A DNA stretch of 64,000 nucleotides from Dictyostelium discoideum (lineage: Eukaryota): contig CM000151.3 in the NCBI GenBank assembly GCA_000004695.1, positions 3,520,001 to 3,584,000 on the forward strand. Direction: 5' to 3'. The notes below the pieces were generated by a model. The model did no database searches. It saw only the letters and a program-made list of their open reading frames with translations, and was not told the DNA's origin. Numbering within the stretch: position 1 is the stretch's first letter; each line of letters opens with the position of its first letter. The translations under genes were made by a program, and so were the position numbers. Shown one piece after another: positions 1,045 through 64,000 of the stretch.

Positions 1045-1806
1045 ATGTCTACCCAAGGTTTAGTTACACTTCTCGGAAATGCTCAATGTCATTTAAGAAC
1101 CTCAACCAATTACAATGGTGTCCACACTCAATTTAATGCTGCTTTAAACTATAAAAACAAAGGTACCAATACTATTGATGGTTCAGAAGCTTGGTGTTCA
1201 TCAATCGTAGATACTAACCAATACATTGTTGCTGGTTGTGAAGTTCCACGTACTTTTATGTGTGTTGCTCTCCAAGGTCGTGGTGATCATGATCAATGGG
1301 TTACATCATACAAAATCCGTTATTCATTAGATAATGTTACCTGGTCTGAATATCGTAATGGTGCTGCTATTACTGGTGTAACTGATCGTAACACTGTTGT
1401 TAATCATTTCTTTGATACTCCAATTAGAGCTCGTTCAATTGCTATCCACCCATTAACCTGGAATAACCACATTTCATTAAGATGTGAATTCTACACTCAA
1501 CCAGTACAAAGCTCAGTCACTCAAGTTGGTGCAGATATTTACACTGGCGATAACTGTGCCTTAAATACCGGTTCAGGTAAACGTGAAGTTGTTGTCCCAG
1601 TTAAATTCCAATTTGAATTTGCTACTCTCCCAAAGGTTGCCCTCAACTTTGATCAAATCGATTGTACTGATGCTACCAATCAAACTCGTATTGGTGTTCA
1701 ACCAAGAAACATTACCACCAAAGGTTTTGATTGTGTTTTCTACACTTGGAATGAAAACAAAGTCTATTCATTAAGAGCTGATTACATTGCCACCGCTTTA
1801 GAATAA
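1045..1806 (+). CDS. Discoidin I (253 aa). N-terminal discoidin/F5-8 type C domain and C-terminal H-type lectin domain.
   Basis: MSTQGLV...[38 protein letters not shown]...ATALE. Single exon. Classic Dictyostelium discoidin I sequence. Confidence 0.95.
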
Positions 1807-4787: not shown

Positions 4788-4844
4788 TAAACATATGCAC
4801 AGGAGTTTGGTGAAAAAATTTTAAACATATGCACGGGAGATTGG
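4788..4844. repeat. Direct repeat taaacatatgcac(a/g)ggag(t/a)ttgg at 4788-4810 and 4822-4844. The second copy overlaps the first 10 nt of tRNA-Leu.
   Basis: Seen directly. A third partial copy at 4314-4331 borders the retroelement poly(T). Confidence 0.8.
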
Positions 4845-4913
4845 TCGAGTGGTTAAGACAATAGATTTAGGCTCTATCCTCCGGGGTCGCGGGTTCGAAC
4901 CCCGCATCTCTCA
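4835..4913 (+). tRNA. tRNA-Leu, anticodon TAG (UAG), class II with a long variable arm.
   Basis: GGGAGAT acceptor pairs with ATCTCTC (one G-U). D-stem GTC/GAC. Anticodon stem ATAGA/TCTAT. Loop TTTAGGC. T-arm GCGGG-TTCGAAC-CCCGC. Discriminator A. Confidence 0.85.
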
Positions 4914-5454
4914 CATTCTTTTTATCCATTTAAATATCTAGATTTCCCTGAAATTTACCTAATAAGGTTAAATAAAATTAAAAAAAGAATGAGGTCAACC
5001 ACATTAAATTGGTAGGAATTTATTTGAGTTTTTACTATTTACGAATAACATTTATTTATTTGATCTATAATTTCATTTTTTTATATATTAACATTATATT
5101 ATTAAGGTTTTTAAAATTTTATTTATTTTTTTTTTTTTTTTATTTTTTTTTTTTTTTTTGAAACTCACACATAATATTGCATGCAGAAATACAAATTTAA
5201 AAAAAATCCGAATTAACACCTATTATTACTAAAATATCTACATCTAGATCAAGTAAATAATTAATTAATATCAAATAAATAATAATAATAAAAATCATAC
5301 ACATTATATGTGCTCATTTTTGAGTAGCTAATCTAAAGAATCTGGTTAAACTTTATATTGTGTGATACTACTGTATGTTAGTATTAGTTGTGCATGTCCT
5401 TGCATCCACTTTACACTGAATGAATAGTAATCAATGTGGTTGGGTCAACTGACA

Positions 5455-13550: not shown

Positions 13551-13565
13551 TTTTAGTAAAAAAAA

Positions 13566-13637
13566 CTCCCCATTCGGGAATCGAACCCGAGGTACCAGTG
13601 TGAAAGACTAGAGTGTTACCGACTACACCAATGAGGA
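13566..13637 (-). tRNA. tRNA-Glu, anticodon TTC (UUC).
   Basis: Reverse complement TCCTCATTGGTGTAGTCGGTAACACTCTAGTCTTTCACACTGGTACCTCGGGTTCGATTCCCGAATGGGGAG. Acceptor TCCTCAT/ATGGGGA. Anticodon stem CTAGT/ACTGG. Loop CTTTCAC. T-loop TTCGATT. Confidence 0.85.
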
Positions 13638-13683
13638 ATTATATGGAAATATTTGATTAAACAAGAAAATTTAATTATTTTAT

Positions 13684-19697: not shown

Positions 19698-19771
19698 TGC
19701 CTCAGGCCGGGATCGAACCAGCGACCTTAAGATCTTCAGTCTCACGCTCGTACCAACTGAGCTACTAAGGC
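19698..19771 (-). tRNA. tRNA-Phe, anticodon GAA.
   Basis: Reverse complement GCCTTAGTAGCTCAGTTGGTACGAGCGTGAGACTGAAGATCTTAAGGTCGCTGGTTCGATCCCGGCCTGAGGCA, very close to canonical eukaryotic tRNA-Phe. Confidence 0.9.
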
Positions 19772-20441: not shown

Positions 20442-24569
<4,128 letters not shown>

Positions 24570-26716: not shown

Positions 26717-27587
26717 AATTCAAAATGAATTAAAGAAAAGTTTAATTGAAAAAGATGATTTTAATTTTAAAATTGATGATGAAAATAAAATGAATACAAC
26801 ATTGAAATATATTGGTGGTGTTGATATTAGTTTTGTAAAAGATAATGATATTGATGCATGTGCATCATTAATTGTAATAGAATATCCATCATTGAAAATA
26901 GTTTATAAAGATATTGAATTTGTTAAATTAAGTGAATTATATATTCCAGGATTTTTAGCATTTAGAGAAACTCCTCATTTAATTAAATTAATTAATAAAT
27001 TAAAACAATCAATAACCTATAACCATTTATTACCTCAAATTATAATGATTGATGGTAATGGTATTCTACATCCACGTGGATTCGGTTTAGCTTCTCATTT
27101 AGGTGTTTTAATTGATATTCCAACAATCGGTGTTGGTAAAACTTTCTTTCATGTTGATGGTTTATCAACAAAAGAAATAAAATCAAAAGTTGAATCTGAA
27201 AGATTAAAATATTTATCAACAACAACTACCACTGATGTAACAACAACACCCTCACCCAATAATAATAAAAATAATAAAAATAATAAAATTAAAAACAATA
27301 ATAATAATATAAGAGAAGATATAAATATAGAAGTTCCATTAAAAGGTGAAAGTGGTAGAATTTGGGGTTCAGCAATATTAAGTAATAGTAACTGTAAGAA
27401 TCCAATTTATGTTTCAGTGGGACACCGAATTTCATTAGAGACAGCTTTAAAGGTTGTTAAATTAACTTCACCATACAGAGTACCTGAATCAATTAGACAA
27501 GCAGATTTATTATCAAGAGATTATATTAGATTAAATTTTAATAAAATACAAACCACTGCTACAACTACTACAACTACTACAAACTAA
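26717..27587 (+). CDS. Endonuclease V exon 2 (after a 109-nt intron). Total about 322 aa.
   Basis: [71 protein letters not shown] align with human ENDOV. N/T-rich insert. Confidence 0.85.
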
Positions 27588-36411: not shown

Positions 36412-37173
36412 ATGTCTACCCAAGGTTTAGTTCAACTCCTCGCAAATGCTCAATGCCATTTAAGAACCTCAACCAATTACAATGGTGTCCACACTCAATT
36501 TAATTCTGCCTTAAACTACAAAAACAATGGTACCAATACCATTGATGGTTCAGAAGCTTGGTGTTCATCAATCGTAGATACCAACCAATACATTGTTGCT
36601 GGTTGTGAAGTTCCACGTACTTTTATGTGTGTTGCTCTCCAAGGTCGTGGTGATGCTGATCAATGGGTTACATCATACAAAATCCGTTATTCATTAGATA
36701 ATGTTTCCTGGTTTGAATATCGTAATGGTGCTGCTGTTACTGGTGTAACTGATCGTAACACTGTTGTTAATCATTTCTTTGATACTCCAATTAGAGCTCG
36801 TTCAATTGCTATCCACCCATTAACCTGGAATGGTCACATTTCATTAAGATGTGAATTCTACACTCAACCAGTACAAAGCTCAGTCACTCAAGTTGGTGCA
36901 GATATTTACACTGGTGATAACTGTGCCTTAAATACCGGTTCAGGTAAACGTGAAGTTGTTGTCCCAGTTAAATTCCAATTTGAATTTGCTACTCTCCCAA
37001 AGGTTGCTCTCAACTTTGATCAAATCGATTGTACTGATGCCACCAATCAAACCCGTATTGGTGTCCAACCAAGAAATATTACCACCAAAGGTTTTGATTG
37101 TGTTTTCTACACTTGGAATGAAAACAAAGTTTACTCATTAAGAGCTGATTACATTGCTACCGCTTTGGAATAA
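36412..37173 (+). CDS. Discoidin I, third copy (253 aa). About 95% nucleotide identity to 1045..1806.
   Basis: [42 protein letters not shown]...ATALE. Confidence 0.95.
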
Positions 37174-55666: not shown

Positions 55667-55723
55667 ATGGAGTTTTTAAAATTAATATTGTTTCTAATAA
55701 TTTTTTATATAATCCATAATACT
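55667..55723 (+). CDS. Cytochrome P450 copy 1, exon 1 (membrane anchor MEFLKLILFLIIFYIIHNT).
   Basis: Donor GTTTGT. Same position as in copies 2 and 3. Confidence 0.6.
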
Positions 55724-55824
55724 GTTTGTATTTTTTCTTTAATTTTAATAAAAAAAAAAAAAAAAAAAGGATAATAATAATAATTATACTTTTTTCTAAA
55801 CACAGATATGGTAAAATTTAAATA

Positions 55825-55868
<44 letters not shown>

Positions 55869-55891
55869 GAAATTAAATCAATTTTTATCAG

Positions 55892-56177
55892 TATATTAAA
55901 TTTAAAAAAATAAATAAAAATGAATTAAAAGGACCAATTCCAATTCCAATTTTAGGAAATTTATATCAACTTACAAGTGGTTTACCACACAGAGATTTAA
56001 CTAAAATATCTGAAAAATATGGTGGAATTTATAGATTTTGGTTTGCTGATTTATACACTGTTGTATTATCTGATCCAATTTTGATTAGAGAAATGTTTGT
56101 TAACAATGGTGATTATTTCCTAGACAGACCAAAAATACCTTCAATAAGACATGCAACTCATTATCATGGTATTGCAA
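55892..56177 (+). CDS. P450 copy 1, exon 2.
   Basis: [27 protein letters not shown]...[18 protein letters not shown]. No intron after DRPKIP. Donor GTTAGT. Phase 1. Confidence 0.7.
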
Positions 56178-56182
56178 GTTAG

Positions 56183-56219
<37 letters not shown>

Positions 56220-56280
56220 AAAAAACTAAAAAAAAAATTAATTATTAATTTTTTTTTTTTTTTTTTTTTAAAAAAAAAAG

Positions 56281-56808
56281 CATCTTCTGGTGAATATTGG
56301 TTAAAAATTAGAGATATAATTAATAAAGCAATGAGAAAAACCAATTTAAAATTAATTTATGATTCATTAGATCAACAAGTTGATAATTTAATTGAATCAA
56401 TGAATAAAATTGAAAGTGATGGACAAGTATTTGAACCACGTATTTATTTTAAAAAATATACAATGGCAGCAATGTATAAATTCATTTTCAATGAAGAAAT
56501 AAATTTTAATAATGAAATATCTGAATTAATTGGGCCAATTGAACAAGTTTTCAAAGATTTAGGAAGTGGTAGTTTATTTGATGTTTTATTAATATCAAGA
56601 CCATTATATTATCAATGGATTGAACATACTGATAAAAATTATCCAAAAATTTTAAATTTTTTAAAAAAAAAATATCATCAACATTTAAAAACTTATAATC
56701 CAGAAATTCAAAGAGATTTATTAGATTTATTAATTAAAGAATATTATAGTGGAAGTGATGATGATATTTTAACAATTATTGCAACTATAAATGATTTATT
56801 TTTAGCTG
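56281..56808 (+). CDS. P450 copy 1, exon 3.
   Basis: (T)[23 protein letters not shown]...NDLFLAG. Donor GTTTGT. Confidence 0.7.
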
Positions 56809-56878
56809 GTTTGTATTAAATTAGTTTTATTATTTTTTATTAAAAAATTTCAATTATTAATAAATTTATTTAAAATAG

Positions 56879-57281
56879 GTACTGATACAAGTAGTGCTTC
56901 ATTAGAATATATGGTTATGATGTTAGTTAATTATCCAGAAATTCAAGAGAAAGTATATGATGAAATTAAATTAACTGTTAACGGTAGAAATAAAGTTTTA
57001 TTATCTGATAGACAATTTACACCATATACAGTTTCATTTATTAAAGAAACATTAAGATATAAACCACCATCTTCTGTTGGTGTACCAAGAACTACTTCTC
57101 AAGATATTATAATTGGTGATAAATTCATTCCAAAAGATGCTCAAATTTTTATAAATTATTATGGACTTTCAAGAAATCAAGATTATTTTGAAAATCCTGA
57201 ACAATTTGAACCATCAAGATTTATGAATCCAGATACAAATATTGCATTTTTACCATTTAGTATTGGTACAAGAAATTGTGT
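56879..57281 (+). CDS. P450 copy 1, exon 4.
   Basis: (G)[24 protein letters not shown]...ETLRYKPP...[12 protein letters not shown]. Donor GTAAGT inside the heme-binding motif. Confidence 0.8.
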
Positions 57282-57367
57282 GTAAGTAAAAAAAAATTAT
57301 TTATTTTATTATTTTTTTTAATTATTTATTTAAAAATTGTTAAATTAATTTTTTTTTTTTTTTTAAG

Positions 57368-57533
57368 TGGTCAAAATTTTGCATTAGATGAAATGTTTCT
57401 TGCATTTTCAAATATAATTTTAAATTTTAAATTTAGTTCAATTGATGGGAAACAAATTGATGAAACTGAATTGTATGGAGTTACATTAAGATGCAAGAAT
57501 AAATTTAATGTATCCATTAAAAAAAGAATTTAA
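57368..57533 (+). CDS. P450 copy 1, exon 5. Total 479 aa.
   Basis: (V)[22 protein letters not shown]...KKRI*. Confidence 0.8.
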
Positions 57534-57577
57534 TTCATTGTAAAATTTAATAAAAAATAATTAATTATAATAAATAA

Positions 57578-57630
<53 letters not shown>

Positions 57631-58371
57631 CTGTGAGCGTGTAAATATTGGATTAAATTTTATTGAATATTATTGTGTCCAAATTTAACCCAATACAAAA
57701 AAAATTATAATTTTTTATTATTTTTATTATTATTTTCATTATTTTTTTTATTTTTTTTTTTATTTTTTATTTTTTATAAAATCTCAAAAATTGAGAATAA
57801 CAATGAAAAAAAAAAAAAAAAAAAAAAAGAAAAAAAAAGAAAAGAAAAAAAGTGTGTGTATTTTTTGTGCATATTGAATAGAAAATGTGTGGGGATCTTA
57901 AAATTTTTTTTTAATTTTTTTTTTTTAATAATGGTGTTAGTATTATTTTTTTATTTTTTATTTTTTTTTTATTTTTTTTATTTTTTTTATTTTTTTTTAT
58001 TTTTTTTTTTTGTACATTAGATTGTGAGGAGACATCTTACTCAGTTGAGAAAACAATAATTTATTTTTATGATTCATAGATTTACTATGTTAATCATCTA
58101 TGTTGTCAGTTTTAATTCAAACATTATTAAAATAATTTTTTTTTTTTAATTTTTTTTTTTTTATTTTTTTTTTTTTTTTTTAAACTGTTGTTGAACAAAA
58201 AAAAAAAAAAAAAAAAAAACAAAAACAAAAACAAAAAAATATTTAAACCAAAAATTAAAAATATAAATAAAAATATAAAAAATAAAAATATAATTGTTGA
58301 AAAGAAAAAAAAAAAAAAAACAAAAAAACAAAAAAAAAAATTACTTGCACACAAGTGGTAATTTAAAAAAT

Positions 58372-58428
58372 ATGGCTTTATTTGAAATTATTATTTCATT
58401 ATTTGTTGTTTATATTATACATAATGCT
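58372..58428 (+). CDS. P450 copy 2, exon 1 (MALFEIIISLFVVYIIHNA).
   Basis: Donor GTAAGT. Confidence 0.7.
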
Positions 58429-58566
58429 GTAAGTCCTATTATTTTATATTAAAAAAAATAAAAATAAATATAATTAATCTAAATTATTATTATTATTATT
58501 TTTAAAAATAATCATTTTTTAATTTTTTAATTTTTTATTTTTAAAATAATTATTTTAATTAATCAG

Positions 58567-58812
58567 ATTTCAAAATATAAAAAAATTCATGTTAATGAGT
58601 TATGTGGTCCAACCCCAATTCCAATTTTAGGAAATCTCCATCAATTTGGAGAATTACCTCATAGAGTATTAACAAAGATGACTAAAAAGTATGGCCATAT
58701 TTTAAGGGTTTATATGGCAGACATGTACACTGTTGTTGTATCTGATCCATTATTAATTAGAGAAATGTATGTTGATAATTCTGATATTTTCACCGATAGA
58801 GTTAAAAAACCA
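58567..58812 (+). CDS. P450 copy 2, exon 2.
   Basis: [82 protein letters not shown]. Donor GTATGT. Confidence 0.8.
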
Positions 58813-59071
58813 GTATGTATCAAAATTAAATAATTAATAAATTGTGTGTTAATTTATTTTTTTTTTAATTATTAATTATTTATTTATTAATTATTAATTA
58901 TTAATTATTTTATTTAAAAAATAAAAAATTTATAAATAATTAATAATAATAATTAATTAAAATAATTAATAATTTAAAAAAAAAAAAAAAATTAATTATT
59001 AATTATTAATTATTTATTTATTAATTATTAATTATTAATTATTTTATTTAAAAAATTAAAAATTTAAATAG

Positions 59072-59651
59072 TCAGTTGAACATGGAACATTTTATCATGG
59101 TACAGTTACAAGTTATGGTGAACATTGGAAAAACAATAGAGAAATTGTTGGTAAAGCAATGAGAAAAACAAATTTAAAACATATTTATGAATTATTAGAT
59201 AAACAAGTTGATGTATTAATAAGATCAATGAAATCAATTGAAACCAGTGGTAAAACATTTGATACTCGTTATTATATTACAAAATTTACAATGTCAGCAA
59301 TGTTTAAATTTCTTTTCAATCATGATATTCCAGAGGATGAAGATATTAATAAAGGTGATACACAAAAATTGATGGGTCCAATGTCTGAGGTTTTTCAAAA
59401 TGCTGGTAGAGGTAGTTTATTTGATGTCATAAATATTACTCAACCACTTTATCTTTTATATTTAGAAATGTTTGATCAAAGTTTTAAAGATATTATGAAA
59501 TATCATAGAGAGAAATATAATGAACATTTAAAAACCTTTGATCCAGATGTTGAAAGAGATTTACTTGATATTTTAATTAAAGAATATGGTACTGATAATG
59601 ATGATAAAATTTTATCAATTTTGGCAACAATTAATGATTTTTTCTTAGCAG
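59072..59651 (+). CDS. P450 copy 2, exon 3.
   Basis: [36 protein letters not shown]...NDFFLAG. Donor GTTTGT. Confidence 0.8.
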
Positions 59652-59703
59652 GTTTGTATTTATAAGTATTTATTATTATTATTATTTAAAAAAATAATAT
59701 TCT

Positions 59704-59739
<36 letters not shown>

Positions 59740-60142
59740 GTGTTGATACAAGTTCAACTGCTTTAGAATCAATGGTATTGATGTTAACAAATTATCCAGA
59801 AATTCAAGAAAAAGCATTTGATGAAATAAAGACAGTTGTAAATGGTAGAAGTAAAGTTAATTTATCAGATAGACAATCAACACCTTATTTAGTTGCTGTA
59901 ATAAAAGAAACATTAAGATATAAACCAATGTCACCATTTGGTTTACCAAGATCTTCATCAAAGGATTGTATGATTGGTGGTCATTTCATTCCAAAGAATG
60001 CACAAATTTTAATTAATTATCAAGCACTTGGAATGAATGAAGAATATTATGAAAATCCAGAACAATTTGATCCATCAAGATTTTTAAAAGTTGAATCAAA
60101 TGTTGCATTTTTACCATTTAGTATTGGTATTAGAAGTTGTGT
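59740..60142 (+). CDS. P450 copy 2, exon 4.
   Basis: (G)[24 protein letters not shown]...[15 protein letters not shown]...[12 protein letters not shown]. Donor GTATGT. Confidence 0.8.
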
Positions 60143-60215
60143 GTATGTATAATTAATTTTTAAAAAAAATTAAAAAATAAACAATTAATTAATCAATTAA
60201 ATTATTTTTTTATAG

Positions 60216-60384
60216 GGGTCAAAGTTTTGCTCAAGATGAGCTATACATTTGTATTTCAAATATTCTTTTAAATTTTAAATTAAAATCAATTGACGGTAAA
60301 AAGATTGATGAAACTGAGGAATATGGCCTCACACTAAAAACTAAAAATAGATTCAATGTAACTCTTGAAAAAAGAATTATCTAA
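60216..60384 (+). CDS. P450 copy 2, exon 5. Total 484 aa.
   Basis: (V)[55 protein letters not shown]. Confidence 0.8.
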
Positions 60385-60419
60385 TTTTTATATTTATTTA
60401 AATAATTATAATAATAATA

Positions 60420-60465
<46 letters not shown>

Positions 60466-60567
60466 AATTTAAAAAAAAACTATTTAACTTCAAAAACAAA
60501 AAAAAGGATTCATTGTGACTCAAAAAAGAAATAACAAATTTTTTAATATATTTTTTAAATAATTAAA

Positions 60568-60600
<33 letters not shown>

Positions 60601-60949
60601 AATTAAAAATATAAAATTAATAAAAATACTAGTTAACGCGATAACCTTATTTTTATTGGTTTGATATTTAACTTTATTATTCAAGAATTTCATTTTTTAC
60701 TTTCAAATTTAATAAAGATTTTTTTTTATTTTTTTTTAAAAAAGAGGGTTGGTTTTTTTTTTTTTTTTCAATTTGAAAAGAATCTTTACTTTTGAAGATA
60801 TTTATAAATTACTATAATTAATTTTTATTTTTTTTAATTTTATTTTTTTATTTTTTTTTGGCATATTTTATGGTTTTTTTTTTTGATTTTATAATTAAAT
60901 TTTTTTTTTTTTTTTTTTTTTTAATTTCATAAAATCAATTTTTAAAAAA

Positions 60950-61003
60950 ATGATATTTGGCATCATTGTGTATCTATTTTTAATTTATATTTTACATAAT
61001 GCT
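60950..61003 (+). CDS. P450 copy 3, exon 1 (MIFGIIVYLFLIYILHNA).
   Basis: Donor GTAAGT. Confidence 0.7.
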
Positions 61004-61119
61004 GTAAGTATTTTTTTATTATTTTTTCTTTTTTTTATTTTCTAAAAAATTTAAAAAACATGTTAGTCTACCAAAAAAAAAAAAAAAAAAAAATAAAAAA
61101 AAAAAAATAAAAATAAAAG

Positions 61120-61365
61120 TATTCAAAATATAAAAGATTAAATGAAAATCAATTACCAGGTCCTTTTCCAATTCCTATATTGGGCAACATTTATCAGTTA
61201 ACCAATTTACCTCATTTTGATTTAACAAAGATGAGTGAAAAATATGGTAAAATCTTTAGAATTTATTTAGCAGACTTATATACAGTTATTGTTTGTGATC
61301 CAATAATTGCAAGAGAGCTATTTGTTGACAAGTTTGACAATTTCATTGACAGACCAAAAATACCA
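61120..61365 (+). CDS. P450 copy 3, exon 2.
   Basis: [82 protein letters not shown]. Donor GTATGT. Confidence 0.8.
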
Positions 61366-61467
61366 GTATGTAAAATTTTTTTTTTTTTTATAATAGTTTT
61401 TATTTCTTTTTTTTTTAATAATAATAAATAAGATTAATTAATTAAATAAATAAAATAAAATAAATAG

Positions 61468-62486
61468 TCAGTAAAACATGGAACATTTTATCATGGTACA
61501 GTAGCATCAATGGGTGATAATTGGAAAAATAATAAAGAGATTGTTGGTAAGGCAATGAGAAAGACCAATTTAAAACATATTTATCAATTATTGGATGATC
61601 AAGTTGATGTATTAATTGAATCGATGAGAACCATTGAATCCAGTGGTGAAACATTTGATCCACGTTATTATTTAACCAAATTTACAATGTCAGCAATGTT
61701 TAAATATATTTTCAATGAAGATATTTCCAAAGATGAAGATGTGCATAATGGTCAATTAGCACAATTAATGAAACCAATGCAAAAGGTATTCAAAGATTTC
61801 GGTACTGGTAGTTTATTTGATGTTTTAGAGATAACAAGACCATTGTATTTCTTATATTTAGAATGGTTTACAAGTCATTATTATCAAGTTATTAATTTTG
61901 GTAAAATGAAAATTTATAAACATTTAGAAACTTACAAACCAGATGTTCAAAGAGACTTAATGGATCTATTGATTAAAGAATATGGTACAGAAACTGATGA
62001 TCAAATTTTATCAATCTCTGCAACAGTTAGTGATTTCTTTTTAGCTGGTGTTGATACTTCTGCAACTTCTTTAGAATTAATTGTAATGATGTTAATTAAT
62101 TATCCAGAATATCAAGAGAAAGCTTATAATGAAATTAAATCAGCATTATCATCAAATGGTGGCGGTGGTGGTGGTGGTTTAACTCAGAGAAATAAAGTTT
62201 TGTTATCAGATAGACAATCAACACCATTTGTTGTATCATTATTTAAAGAAACATTAAGATATAAACCAATATCACCATTTGGTTTACCAAGATCAACTAC
62301 CTCTGATATCATTTTAAATAATGGTCAATTTATTCCAAAGAATGCTCAAATTTTAATTAATTATCATGCATTATCTAGAAATGAAGAATATTTTGAAAAT
62401 CCAAATCAATTTGATCCAACTAGATTTTTAAATTCTGATTCAAATCCAGCTTTCATGCCATTTAGTATTGGTCCAAGAAATTGCGT
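61468..62486 (+). CDS. P450 copy 3, exon 3 (long; it contains the FLAG|VDTS position without an intron).
   Basis: [36 protein letters not shown]...[14 protein letters not shown]...[15 protein letters not shown]...[12 protein letters not shown]. Donor GTAATG. Confidence 0.85.
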
Positions 62487-62586
62487 GTAATGTATCTAAA
62501 TTATATTCTCACTCAATTACTTAATTGATTTGAGTATTATCATGTATATATTTTCAGATATTAATTTTTTATTTTTAATAATTTAG

Positions 62587-62749
62587 TGGAAGTAATTTTG
62601 CCCAAGATGAAATTTATATTGCATTATCAAATATGATATTAAATTTCAAATTTAAATCAATTGATGGTAAACCAGTTGATGAAACTCAAACTTATGGTTT
62701 AACATTAAAACCAAACCCATTCAAAGTAATTCTTGAAAAAAGAAAATAA
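62587..62749 (+). CDS. P450 copy 3, exon 4. Total 493 aa.
   Basis: (V)[53 protein letters not shown]. Confidence 0.8.
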
Positions 62750-62852: not shown

Positions 62853-64000
62853 TTATTTTGTCCCCATAATAATTTTAACTTTTGGTGGAAATGGTACTTT
62901 ATCTTCAAATTTATAATTAATTAAATGAATTGTTTTTAAAGATGATGGGAAATTTTTAATTGGGTGGATAATGTTATCAAGATAAAGAGTTTCAAGTTGA
63001 TCAGGTAATTCAATTGATTCATTATTGAATTGATTATGAAGGTATAATATTTTAATTGAGCTTGGTATTGACAATGCTTGTCTTTTAATATCATATAAAT
63101 GTAATTCTTGAATTGATGATGGTAAAACACCATATCCTAATGATTTTGAAAATCCATCATGTATATGAAGACATTTTACATTCTTACCAATTGATTCAGT
63201 TGTTAATGGTTCATTAATTCTATAAAAGTGAACTGTTTTAGCTGAATCTGGTATAACATTCTTTGTGAATTTAATTTTACAATTATCATGAAAATGAATT
63301 TCATTAACTGAACTGCATTGAATATAGAATGCATGTGATTTTTTAATATCACCAATGTGTAGTACTTTAATTGATTTTGGAACAGAGTATACCAATTCTT
63401 TAAATCCATCTAATAATATTAATGTGTCAACTGAATTTGGTAAATTACCTTTAACAATTGGCCATGTATCTGCATAATCTCCATCAATCGATACACTCTT
63501 AACACCTGATTCAACTTTACCAATTACATATTTATTACTATTATTTTTAAAAATTTCAATTGATGCTACTTTTTTAATTTCAACCGGTGTAATTTTATCC
63601 AATGAAATTGTTGTTGTTGTGGTTGTTGTGGTGGTTGTATTTCTATTATCATACATTGTTGTTGAGTCTGGTAATGGAGCAGTTGGAATTGGTTGATAAT
63701 AAATTGGAGAACTCAAATTTGGTGTTGATAATGCTGATGATGATGAAATTATTGATTCTAAATAATTTATTTTTTCTAATAAAAATGAGGTGGTTTTTTG
63801 ATTACTGATATCTAATTGTTGGATTTTATCATATAATTTATTGAGTATTGGCGATAATGCAATGTAATGACAATTTGATTCATGTGATTGCAATTCTTTA
63901 ATTGGACCAACCCATGAACACATTAATGAACTTGCATTACATTTAACTGATTTTGAAGTACATTCATTTGAGTGTAATTTTAATTGTTCTCTTGTAAATT
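62853..64000 (-). CDS. FNIP-repeat-containing protein, 3' part. The gene continues upstream beyond the window end. The N-terminal readable portion has a Cys/His-rich zinc-finger-like segment.
   Basis: Repeated units of about 22-24 aa: LP.SI..L.FG..FN..I..LP.SL..L (FNIP repeats). The ORF is open to nt 64000 (...ECTSKSVKCNASSLMCSWVGPIKELQSHESNCHY). Confidence 0.7.
   Translation of the reverse strand, partial: FTREQLKLHSNECTSKSVKCNASSLMCSWVGPIKELQSHESNCHYIALSPILNKLYDKIQQLDISNQKTTSFLLEKINYLESIISSSSALSTPNLSSPIYYQPIPTAPLPDSTTMYDNRNTTTTTTTTTTISLDKITPVEIKKVASIEIFKNNSNKYVIGKVESGVKSVSIDGDYADTWPIVKGNLPNSVDTLILLDGFKELVYSVPKSIKVLHIGDIKKSHAFYIQCSSVNEIHFHDNCKIKFTKNVIPDSAKTVHFYRINEPLTTESIGKNVKCLHIHDGFSKSLGYGVLPSSIQELHLYDIKRQALSIPSSIKILYLHNQFNNESIELPDQLETLYLDNIIHPIKNFPSSLKTIHLINYKFEDKVPFPPKVKIIMGTK

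Follow-up and report, generated by a model that had tools for sequence, protein, structure and literature searches.

Three cytochrome P450 genes lie head to tail on the + strand of a 64,000-nucleotide (nt) stretch of Dictyostelium discoideum DNA (assembly GCA_000004695.1, contig CM000151.3, forward-strand positions 3,520,001 to 3,584,000). We refer to the whole of this stretch as the window, and positions are given in its coordinates. The genes occupy 55667-62749, from the ATG of the first copy to the final base of the third copy's stop codon, and they carry different sets of introns (Table 1). Exon models were drawn by eye from three-frame translations and then with our own spliced-alignment dynamic programme, which required GT..AG and allowed all three phases; the two sets of exon boundaries were identical for all three copies, and the translations are stop-free. 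In exact-sequence look-ups, the translations matched D. discoideum AX4 proteins residue for residue: ‘Probable cytochrome P450 508A3’ (XP_001134606.1) for copy 1, ‘Probable cytochrome P450 508A1’ (XP_644330.1) for copy 2, and ‘Probable cytochrome P450 508A2’ (XP_644331.1) for copy 3. Both the genes and their exon structures thus belong to the existing reference annotation, and the genes described here do not differ from the annotated cyp508A3, cyp508A1, and cyp508A2 of chromosome 2 (AX4). CYP508A1, A2, and A3 have also been named among the full-length CYP genes (eLife 2019, PMC6524965), while the intron differences among them are not discussed in the searchable literature.

All three proteins match the Pfam p450 profile (PF00067), with E-values of 3.3e-94 (cyp508A3), 8.6e-104 (cyp508A1), and 3e-90 (cyp508A2) and with coverage ranging from profile positions 2-445 through 2-461 of 462. 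Each contains the heme-ligand cysteine motif FxxGxRxCxG, the K-helix ETLR, PSRF or PTRF, and an I-helix reading AGTDTS or AGVDTS. Judged by their sequences, the three genes are members of the P450 family and encode putative heme-binding monooxygenases. In P450 nomenclature, members of one subfamily share about 55% identity or more, and the pairwise identity of CYP508A1, A2, and A3 is 59-65%, consistent with their common subfamily, CYP508A. Outside the dictyostelids, the best matches are CYP2J proteins of animals and plant proteins of the CYP71 type, with identities of about 24-32%. A segment of chromosome 2 is duplicated in the laboratory strains AX3/AX4. Each of the three proteins has two AX4 GenBank accessions (e.g., EAL70405.1 and EAL71160.1) and a published paper uses the name ‘CYP508A3-2’, both of which are consistent with a cluster that lies inside the duplicated segment.

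All 11 introns in the three genes are bounded by GT..AG and contain 3-16% G+C, compared with 14-29% in the exons and about 20% in the window, and retention of any one of them would introduce an in-frame stop. Below, a caret marks the splice position within a motif. One intron, which follows HNT or HNA, lies just past the membrane anchor, and another falls in the heme-binding motif; the intron that we call DRPKIP follows the (K/I)P of DR(V/P)K(K/I)P. The sequence-only reading of this DNA had described three tandem P450 paralogs sharing the anchor intron and the phase-2 heme-motif intron, with a phase-0 DRPKIP intron in copies 2 and 3 but not copy 1, a phase-1 FLA^G intron in copies 1 and 2 but not copy 3, and recurring exons of 246 nt and 403 nt. 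The spliced models bear out this description throughout: copy 1 has no GT at the DRPKIP site, copy 3 reads GCT GGT GTT straight through at FLA^G, and the 246-nt exon is common to copies 2 and 3, the 403-nt exon to copies 1 and 2. That reading had also placed a phase-1 intron, found in copy 1 only, after HYHGIA and 13 codons beyond the DRPKIP site. The intron is indeed there; the distance, however, is 12 codons and 1 nt (37 nt), so that the intron falls inside the 13th codon. If this intron were retained, an in-frame TAG would be met at 56180, in the second codon, and, since 103 nt is not a multiple of three, the frame would shift.

We mapped intron positions in 23 dictyostelid CYP508-family genes on one protein alignment, with genomic DNA obtained by homology search and contig look-ups. 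The comparison took in L001 and L002, which hold the syntenic clusters of D. firmibasis and D. citrinum, respectively; L004, with a CYP508A4-like gene of D. discoideum; D. purpureum 43840, 83390, and 92912, the last with a neighbor gene; and additional members of the CYP508 family from D. firmibasis, Polysphondylium violaceum, Cavenderia fasciculata, and Heterostelium album. When a locus's own annotated protein served as the query, the spliced alignment reproduced that protein at 100% identity. The anchor intron (phase 0) is present in 23 of 23 genes. The DRPKIP intron (phase 0) occurs in A1 and A2 of all three species, in the A4-like gene, and in D. purpureum 43840 and 83390, and is missing from the three A3 orthologs. 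The FLA^G intron (phase 1) occurs in A1 and A3 of all three species and in D. purpureum 43840, and is missing from A2, including the orthologs in D. firmibasis and D. citrinum, and from the A4-like gene. The HYHGIA intron (phase 1) was found in the three A3 orthologs only. At all four intron sites the CYP508A members align free of gaps. D. purpureum 43840 has the structure of copy 2, with all four introns (anchor, DRPKIP, FLA^G, and heme) in the same phases, 0, 0, 1, and 2, while the A4-like gene is without the FLA^G and heme introns and has an intron of its own at 71.2 (past A1 residue 71, phase 2).

D. firmibasis and D. citrinum each have a three-gene cluster that matches the D. discoideum order and has the same FNIP-repeat gene downstream of it, and intron positions and phases are identical, ortholog by ortholog, to those of D. 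discoideum. A neighbor-joining tree took the form (Dpur_83390,(Dpur_43840,(A4,(A3,(A1,A2))))), with bootstraps of 83, 82, 79, 44, and 94. Every ortholog trio received 100% bootstrap support, which rules out recent gene conversion among the tandem copies. D. purpureum 83390, named ‘CYP508A3_Dp’ in PMC6524965, was considered as a possible A3 ortholog and rejected: it falls outside the clade formed by A1 to A4, and it carries the DRPKIP intron but not the HYHGIA intron.

Several details of these comparative models merit record. For the D. firmibasis A3 ortholog RB653_010522 (L001 10001-12114), the deposited 467-residue model lacks 12 residues after the anchor; a 479-residue model with the exon 2 start used in D. 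discoideum fits better (411 of 479 residues identical, gap-free). The A3-specific intron of this species owes its length to an extended (AAT)n run. In cyp508A1, the DRPKIP intron measures 259 nt in D. discoideum but 78 nt and 121 nt in D. firmibasis and D. citrinum, respectively; the expansion consists of tandem repeats of the TTAATTA type, among them a 29-nt unit present twice in nearly exact form. Dictyostelium genes have the heme-motif intron at C[2]V, whereas in both H. album genes it is at CVAS[2] (L009 8136-8217 and 10543-10638), in the same phase and 9 nt downstream.

The same comparison bears on whether the copy 1 model is correct, the alternative being that cyp508A3 is a pseudogene or is mis-modeled and that 56178-56280 is not spliced out. 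The sequence-only reading had called the donors GTTTGT and GTTAGT weak, and they do depart from the common hexamers GTAAGT and GTATGT, each of which accounts for 23 of the 78 donors that we tallied; they become less doubtful, however, in the light of the orthologs. Where D. discoideum has GTTAGT at A3 intron 2, D. firmibasis has GTAAGT and D. citrinum has GTATGT; at A3 intron 1, both species have GTATGT in place of GTTTGT. At FLA^G, GTTTGT is kept in all six A1 and A3 orthologs, which supply six of the eight GTTTGT donors among the 78 introns; on this pattern of conservation it is a stable feature of the intron, and the call is not a doubtful one. For the HYHGIA intron, the GT/AG boundaries, the reading frame, and the flanking exon sequence are kept in all three species, while the intron itself varies in length (103 nt in D. 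discoideum, 375 nt in D. firmibasis, 99 nt in D. citrinum) and is largely unalignable. Ratios of non-synonymous to synonymous substitution rates (dN/dS) between orthologs are 0.17-0.22 for A3, 0.06-0.10 for A1, and 0.12-0.17 for A2, values that place all three genes under purifying selection; they have probably remained functional since the species split. No junction reads were seen, and a look-up of the A3 protein for transcript evidence returned no gene on record; nevertheless, the model is identical to the curated RefSeq protein, and cyp508A3 has been reported in RNA-seq data, where CYP508A3-2 appears in the gene list (bioRxiv 10.1101/2022.07.08.499268). We therefore consider a modeling artefact or a decayed gene to be very unlikely.

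The distribution of the introns gives the differences a direction. D. purpureum 43840 and A1 share four intron positions and phases, each of which is also seen in further lineages, indicating that the ancestral CYP508A gene had the structure of A1: an anchor intron (phase 0), a DRPKIP intron (phase 0), a FLA^G intron (phase 1), and an intron in the heme-motif valine codon (phase 2). The tandem array would have arisen by duplications after the split from D. purpureum, with cyp508A1 retaining the full ancestral set. From that starting point, cyp508A2 lost the FLA^G intron, while in cyp508A3 the DRPKIP intron was lost and a phase-1 intron was gained 37 nt further downstream. Because the alignment is gap-free at these sites, both losses are exact and the gain is a clean insertion; neither the A3 DRPKIP site nor the A2 FLA^G site contains a gap, as is expected of precise loss in the model of Ma et al. 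(2015). Since the same structures are found in D. citrinum and D. firmibasis, all three changes were already fixed when these two species and D. discoideum separated. The sequence-only reading had counted at least two gains or losses since the duplications; polarized against other dictyostelid CYP508 genes, the check that it had itself proposed, the count rises to three, comprising two precise losses and one gain. We put the probability at roughly 85% that this is a known P450 trio whose structures are explained by two old intron losses and one old gain.

The direction of change at HYHGIA could in principle be reversed, with the intron ancestral and kept only in A3 after independent loss from A1, A2, A4, the D. 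purpureum genes, and all other CYP508 genes. Intron loss is both recurrent and common in Dictyostelium (PMC4683709), but this history would call for at least four or five independent exact losses in place of one gain, as well as an ancestor in which the two introns enclosed a 37-nt exon. A minus-strand P450 gene beside D. purpureum 92912 (L005) has an intron of the same phase nearby, at NFK[1]GIS, 9 nt upstream of HYHGIA[1]T. We had considered it as a second instance of the HYHGIA intron and rejected it, as it lies at K^G; it thus interrupts another codon in a distant subfamily, and its gene model is based on homology only, at just 40% identity and with one stop near the N-terminus. We judge an ancestral HYHGIA intron to be highly improbable.

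Other observations weigh against the account of two losses and one gain, or against particular parts of it. The relative placement of A4 and A3 is weak, with a bootstrap of 44 in a tree made by neighbor joining only, and further D. purpureum genes named as CYP508A (26606, 156647, 54607, 97847, and 87778; PMC6524965) fall outside the 23-gene map. The P450 motifs (FxxGxRxCxG, ETLR, AGxDTS, and PxRF) are intact in nearly all orthologs; in D. citrinum A3, an alanine in place of glycine follows the Cys-Val of the heme motif, which thereby departs from the strict pattern. In the Logan assembly of sequencing runs, the sole contig in the A3 protein cluster (P0003) encodes exon 4 only and is unspliced. 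Finally, the loss and the gain in A3 are perhaps not independent, as they lie so close together that chance would place them there in only about 5% of cases.

As to mechanism, both losses most likely proceeded by recombination with reverse-transcribed spliced messenger RNA (mRNA), and their exactness fits recombination with complementary DNA (cDNA) made from such a template. Each is the loss of a single internal intron, the second of four in A3 and the third of four in A2, while the A4-like gene is without both 3' introns. Ma et al. (2015, PMC4683709) favor the cDNA model for Dictyostelium and report that cDNA-mediated loss and the joint loss of adjacent introns are typical of D. discoideum, a pattern into which the A4-like gene may fit. 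The new A3 intron may derive from AT-rich sequence that can no longer be traced to a source. It was inserted between the A and the CA of a threonine codon, and the exon junction reads GCAA^CATC in all three species. When the three A3 orthologs' versions of this intron were compared by blastn with the window and 11 loci, in search of a source or of further copies such as an introner or transposon would leave, only A/T runs matched, the introns being of low complexity; in studies of this kind, the source of a gained intron is usually not found (PMC4683709). Two routes were considered and rejected: (i) tandem duplication of a proto-splice site, as the site has no AG^GT junction and the intron ends contain no exon-like sequence, and (ii) intronization of coding sequence, as the spliced protein is colinear with its paralogs.

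The closeness of the lost and gained positions raises the alternative that the DRPKIP intron of the A3 ancestor moved in one event, making loss and gain a single mutation. For example, the excised intron could have re-entered the spliced mRNA from which it came by reverse splicing, at a point 37 nt downstream, with reverse transcription and recombination into the gene to follow. The two positions are mutually exclusive, and if the events were independent, the chance of their falling within 37 nt of one another in a 1440-nt coding sequence is about 75/1440; moreover, had the two introns once coexisted, they would have enclosed a micro-exon of 37 nt. Between the two positions, the 12 codons are colinear and homologous, as would be expected if the intron alone had moved. 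Against relocation, the CAA^CAT exon junction does not have the form of a proto-splice site. The new intron of A3 and the DRPKIP intron of A1 have one 17-mer, AAAATTAATTATTAATT, exactly in common, and it has no other exact occurrence in the window. We rejected it as a trace of the intron's source: the motif is of low complexity, and in all three species the DRPKIP introns are no outliers in Smith-Waterman local-alignment z-scores, suggesting coincidence. Even introns of the same gene are mostly dissimilar across species (z = 4.7, -0.3, and -2.2), and as the similarity of orthologous introns is mostly gone, present-day sequence cannot report on an event older than the species split. A coupled relocation of this kind seems to us an outside chance when set beside separate loss and gain.

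Movement of the intron by classical sliding, in which stepwise shifts of donor and acceptor would carry it from the DRPKIP to the HYHGIA position, predicts the same signature, since close and mutually exclusive positions are what is used for detecting sliding (PMC2891723). Sliding, however, exchanges exon for intron sequence, yet the 12 intervening codons align without gaps and are identical at 6 of 12 residues, which is about the gene-wide level; the shift would also have to span 37 nt and take the intron from phase 0 to phase 1. We give this process almost no credence. The A3 pair resembles the near intron pairs (NIPs) described in Drosophila (Lehmann et al. 2010, PMC2891723) in that the old and new positions are close and mutually exclusive, with the old intron gone where the new one is present, and none of the 23 genes has both the DRPKIP and HYHGIA introns. 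It differs from them in distance, being 37 nt apart (56141 to 56178) where the limit for NIPs is <32 nt, and in that both sliding and tandem duplication of a proto-splice site fail as explanations.

Closely spaced introns are not confined to A3. Across the I-helix motif A-G-x-D-T-S/T, the CYP508-family genes have introns at five positions within six codons: A[1]G, AG[2]T, AGN[0]D, AGTDT[1]S, and GGIDTS[1]A. In addition, the rare donor GTTTGTAT is common to the FLA^G intron of A1 and A3 and to the intron of D. firmibasis 6352 located 5 nt downstream. The I-helix positions may mark an intron hotspot or may reflect real short-range movement. That the dictyostelid CYP508 genes as a group (A3, the I-helix, the shared donor) record true short-range relocation, and not loss plus unrelated gain, strikes us as doubtful; if it were true, and one mechanism were responsible, for instance reverse splicing into the intron's own mRNA and subsequent cDNA recombination, the family would offer a rare natural series for studies of intron transposition.

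Elsewhere in the window are two intronless 253-residue open reading frames (ORFs), which are identical at 245 of 253 residues and lie about 35 kb apart. The first was scanned and contains F5/8 type C and H-type lectin domains; by sequence, the two look like discoidin-I-type lectin paralogs. An Rfam scan of both the P450 region and the whole window detected three transfer RNAs (tRNAs) and no other RNA family. An FNIP-repeat protein gene lies directly downstream of cyp508A2, and an endonuclease V homolog and a large protein kinase are also present. When compared by blastn with D. citrinum, the intergenic DNA between A3 and A1 is about 74% identical over 858 nt, which is ordinary synteny with nothing else of note.

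Table 1. Coordinates of the genes, introns, and other features discussed. Positions are in the window unless a comparison locus (L) is named; a caret marks the splice position.
Feature	Position	Strand	Phase	Details
Copy 1, cyp508A3	55667-57533	+		479 amino acids; exons 55667-55723, 55892-56177, 56281-56808, 56879-57281, 57368-57533 (including stop)
Copy 1 intron 1	55724-55891	+	0	past membrane anchor (HNT^Y); donor GTTTGT
Copy 1 intron-less DRPKIP site	56140/56141	+		CCT^TCA; no GT, no indel
Copy 1 intron 2	56178-56280	+	1	103 nt; 4.9% G+C; donor GTTAGT; splits HYHGIA^T
Copy 1 intron 3	56809-56878	+	1	splits I-helix FLA^G-TDTS; donor GTTTGT
Copy 1 intron 4	57282-57367	+	2	within Val codon of heme-binding motif
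Copy 2, cyp508A1	58372-60384	+		484 amino acids; exons 58372-58428, 58567-58812, 59072-59651, 59740-60142, 60216-60384
Copy 2 intron 1	58429-58566	+	0	membrane-anchor position
Copy 2 intron 2	58813-59071	+	0	259 nt; DRPKIP position (KKP^S); internal TTAATTA-type tandem repeats
Copy 2 intron 3	59652-59739	+	1	FLA^G; donor GTTTGT
Copy 2 intron 4	60143-60215	+	2	heme motif
Copy 3, cyp508A2	60950-62749	+		493 amino acids; exons 60950-61003, 61120-61365, 61468-62486, 62587-62749
Copy 3 intron 1	61004-61119	+	0	membrane-anchor position
Copy 3 intron 2	61366-61467	+	0	DRPKIP position
Copy 3 intron-less FLA^G site	62047/62048	+		GCT G^GT GTT read through
Copy 3 intron 3	62487-62586	+	2	heme motif; donor GTAATG (same GTAATG in A2 orthologs)
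I-helix introns	56809-56878, 59652-59739; L006 6952-7033; L011 11044-11115			also in L005 (both genes) and L010 (neighbor gene)
Intronless ORF	1045-1806	+		253 amino acids; the one scanned
tRNA-Leu(TAG)	4835-4914	+
tRNA-Glu(TTC)	13565-13638	-
tRNA-Phe(GAA)	19698-19771	-
Large protein kinase	20442-24569	-
Endonuclease V homolog	26790-27587	+
Intronless ORF	36412-37173	+		253 amino acids
FNIP-repeat protein gene	62853-63923	-		directly downstream of cyp508A2

Tandem P450 paralogs, such as those of the Arabidopsis CYP families, often differ by lineage-specific intron losses and occasional gains, with core positions conserved. The same pattern is found here in CYP508A, a dictyostelid family, and the intron differences, though real, are ordinary: a known phenomenon in known genes. 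For P450 biology they carry little weight, since genes and exon structures alike were annotated beforehand. What they add for Dictyostelium is one well-polarized, well-dated intron gain together with two precise losses in one tandem array. With the lost intron only 37 nt away, that gain could serve to test coupled relocation, given denser sampling of group-4 dictyostelids. A previous survey of D. discoideum reported 441 precise losses and 40 putative gains, and found sources for only two of the gains (PMC4683709). DPU 43840 was not found in Table S1 of that survey, which was searched without the right DDB_G identifiers. As the survey was built on orthologs across five genomes, it would probably pass over a paralogous family of this kind. 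Our results agree with it in the organism, in the precision of the losses, and possibly in the A4-like gene, which is without two adjacent 3' introns; they differ in that polarity is drawn here from paralogs and three newer genomes, and in that the single losses are internal and not 3'-terminal.

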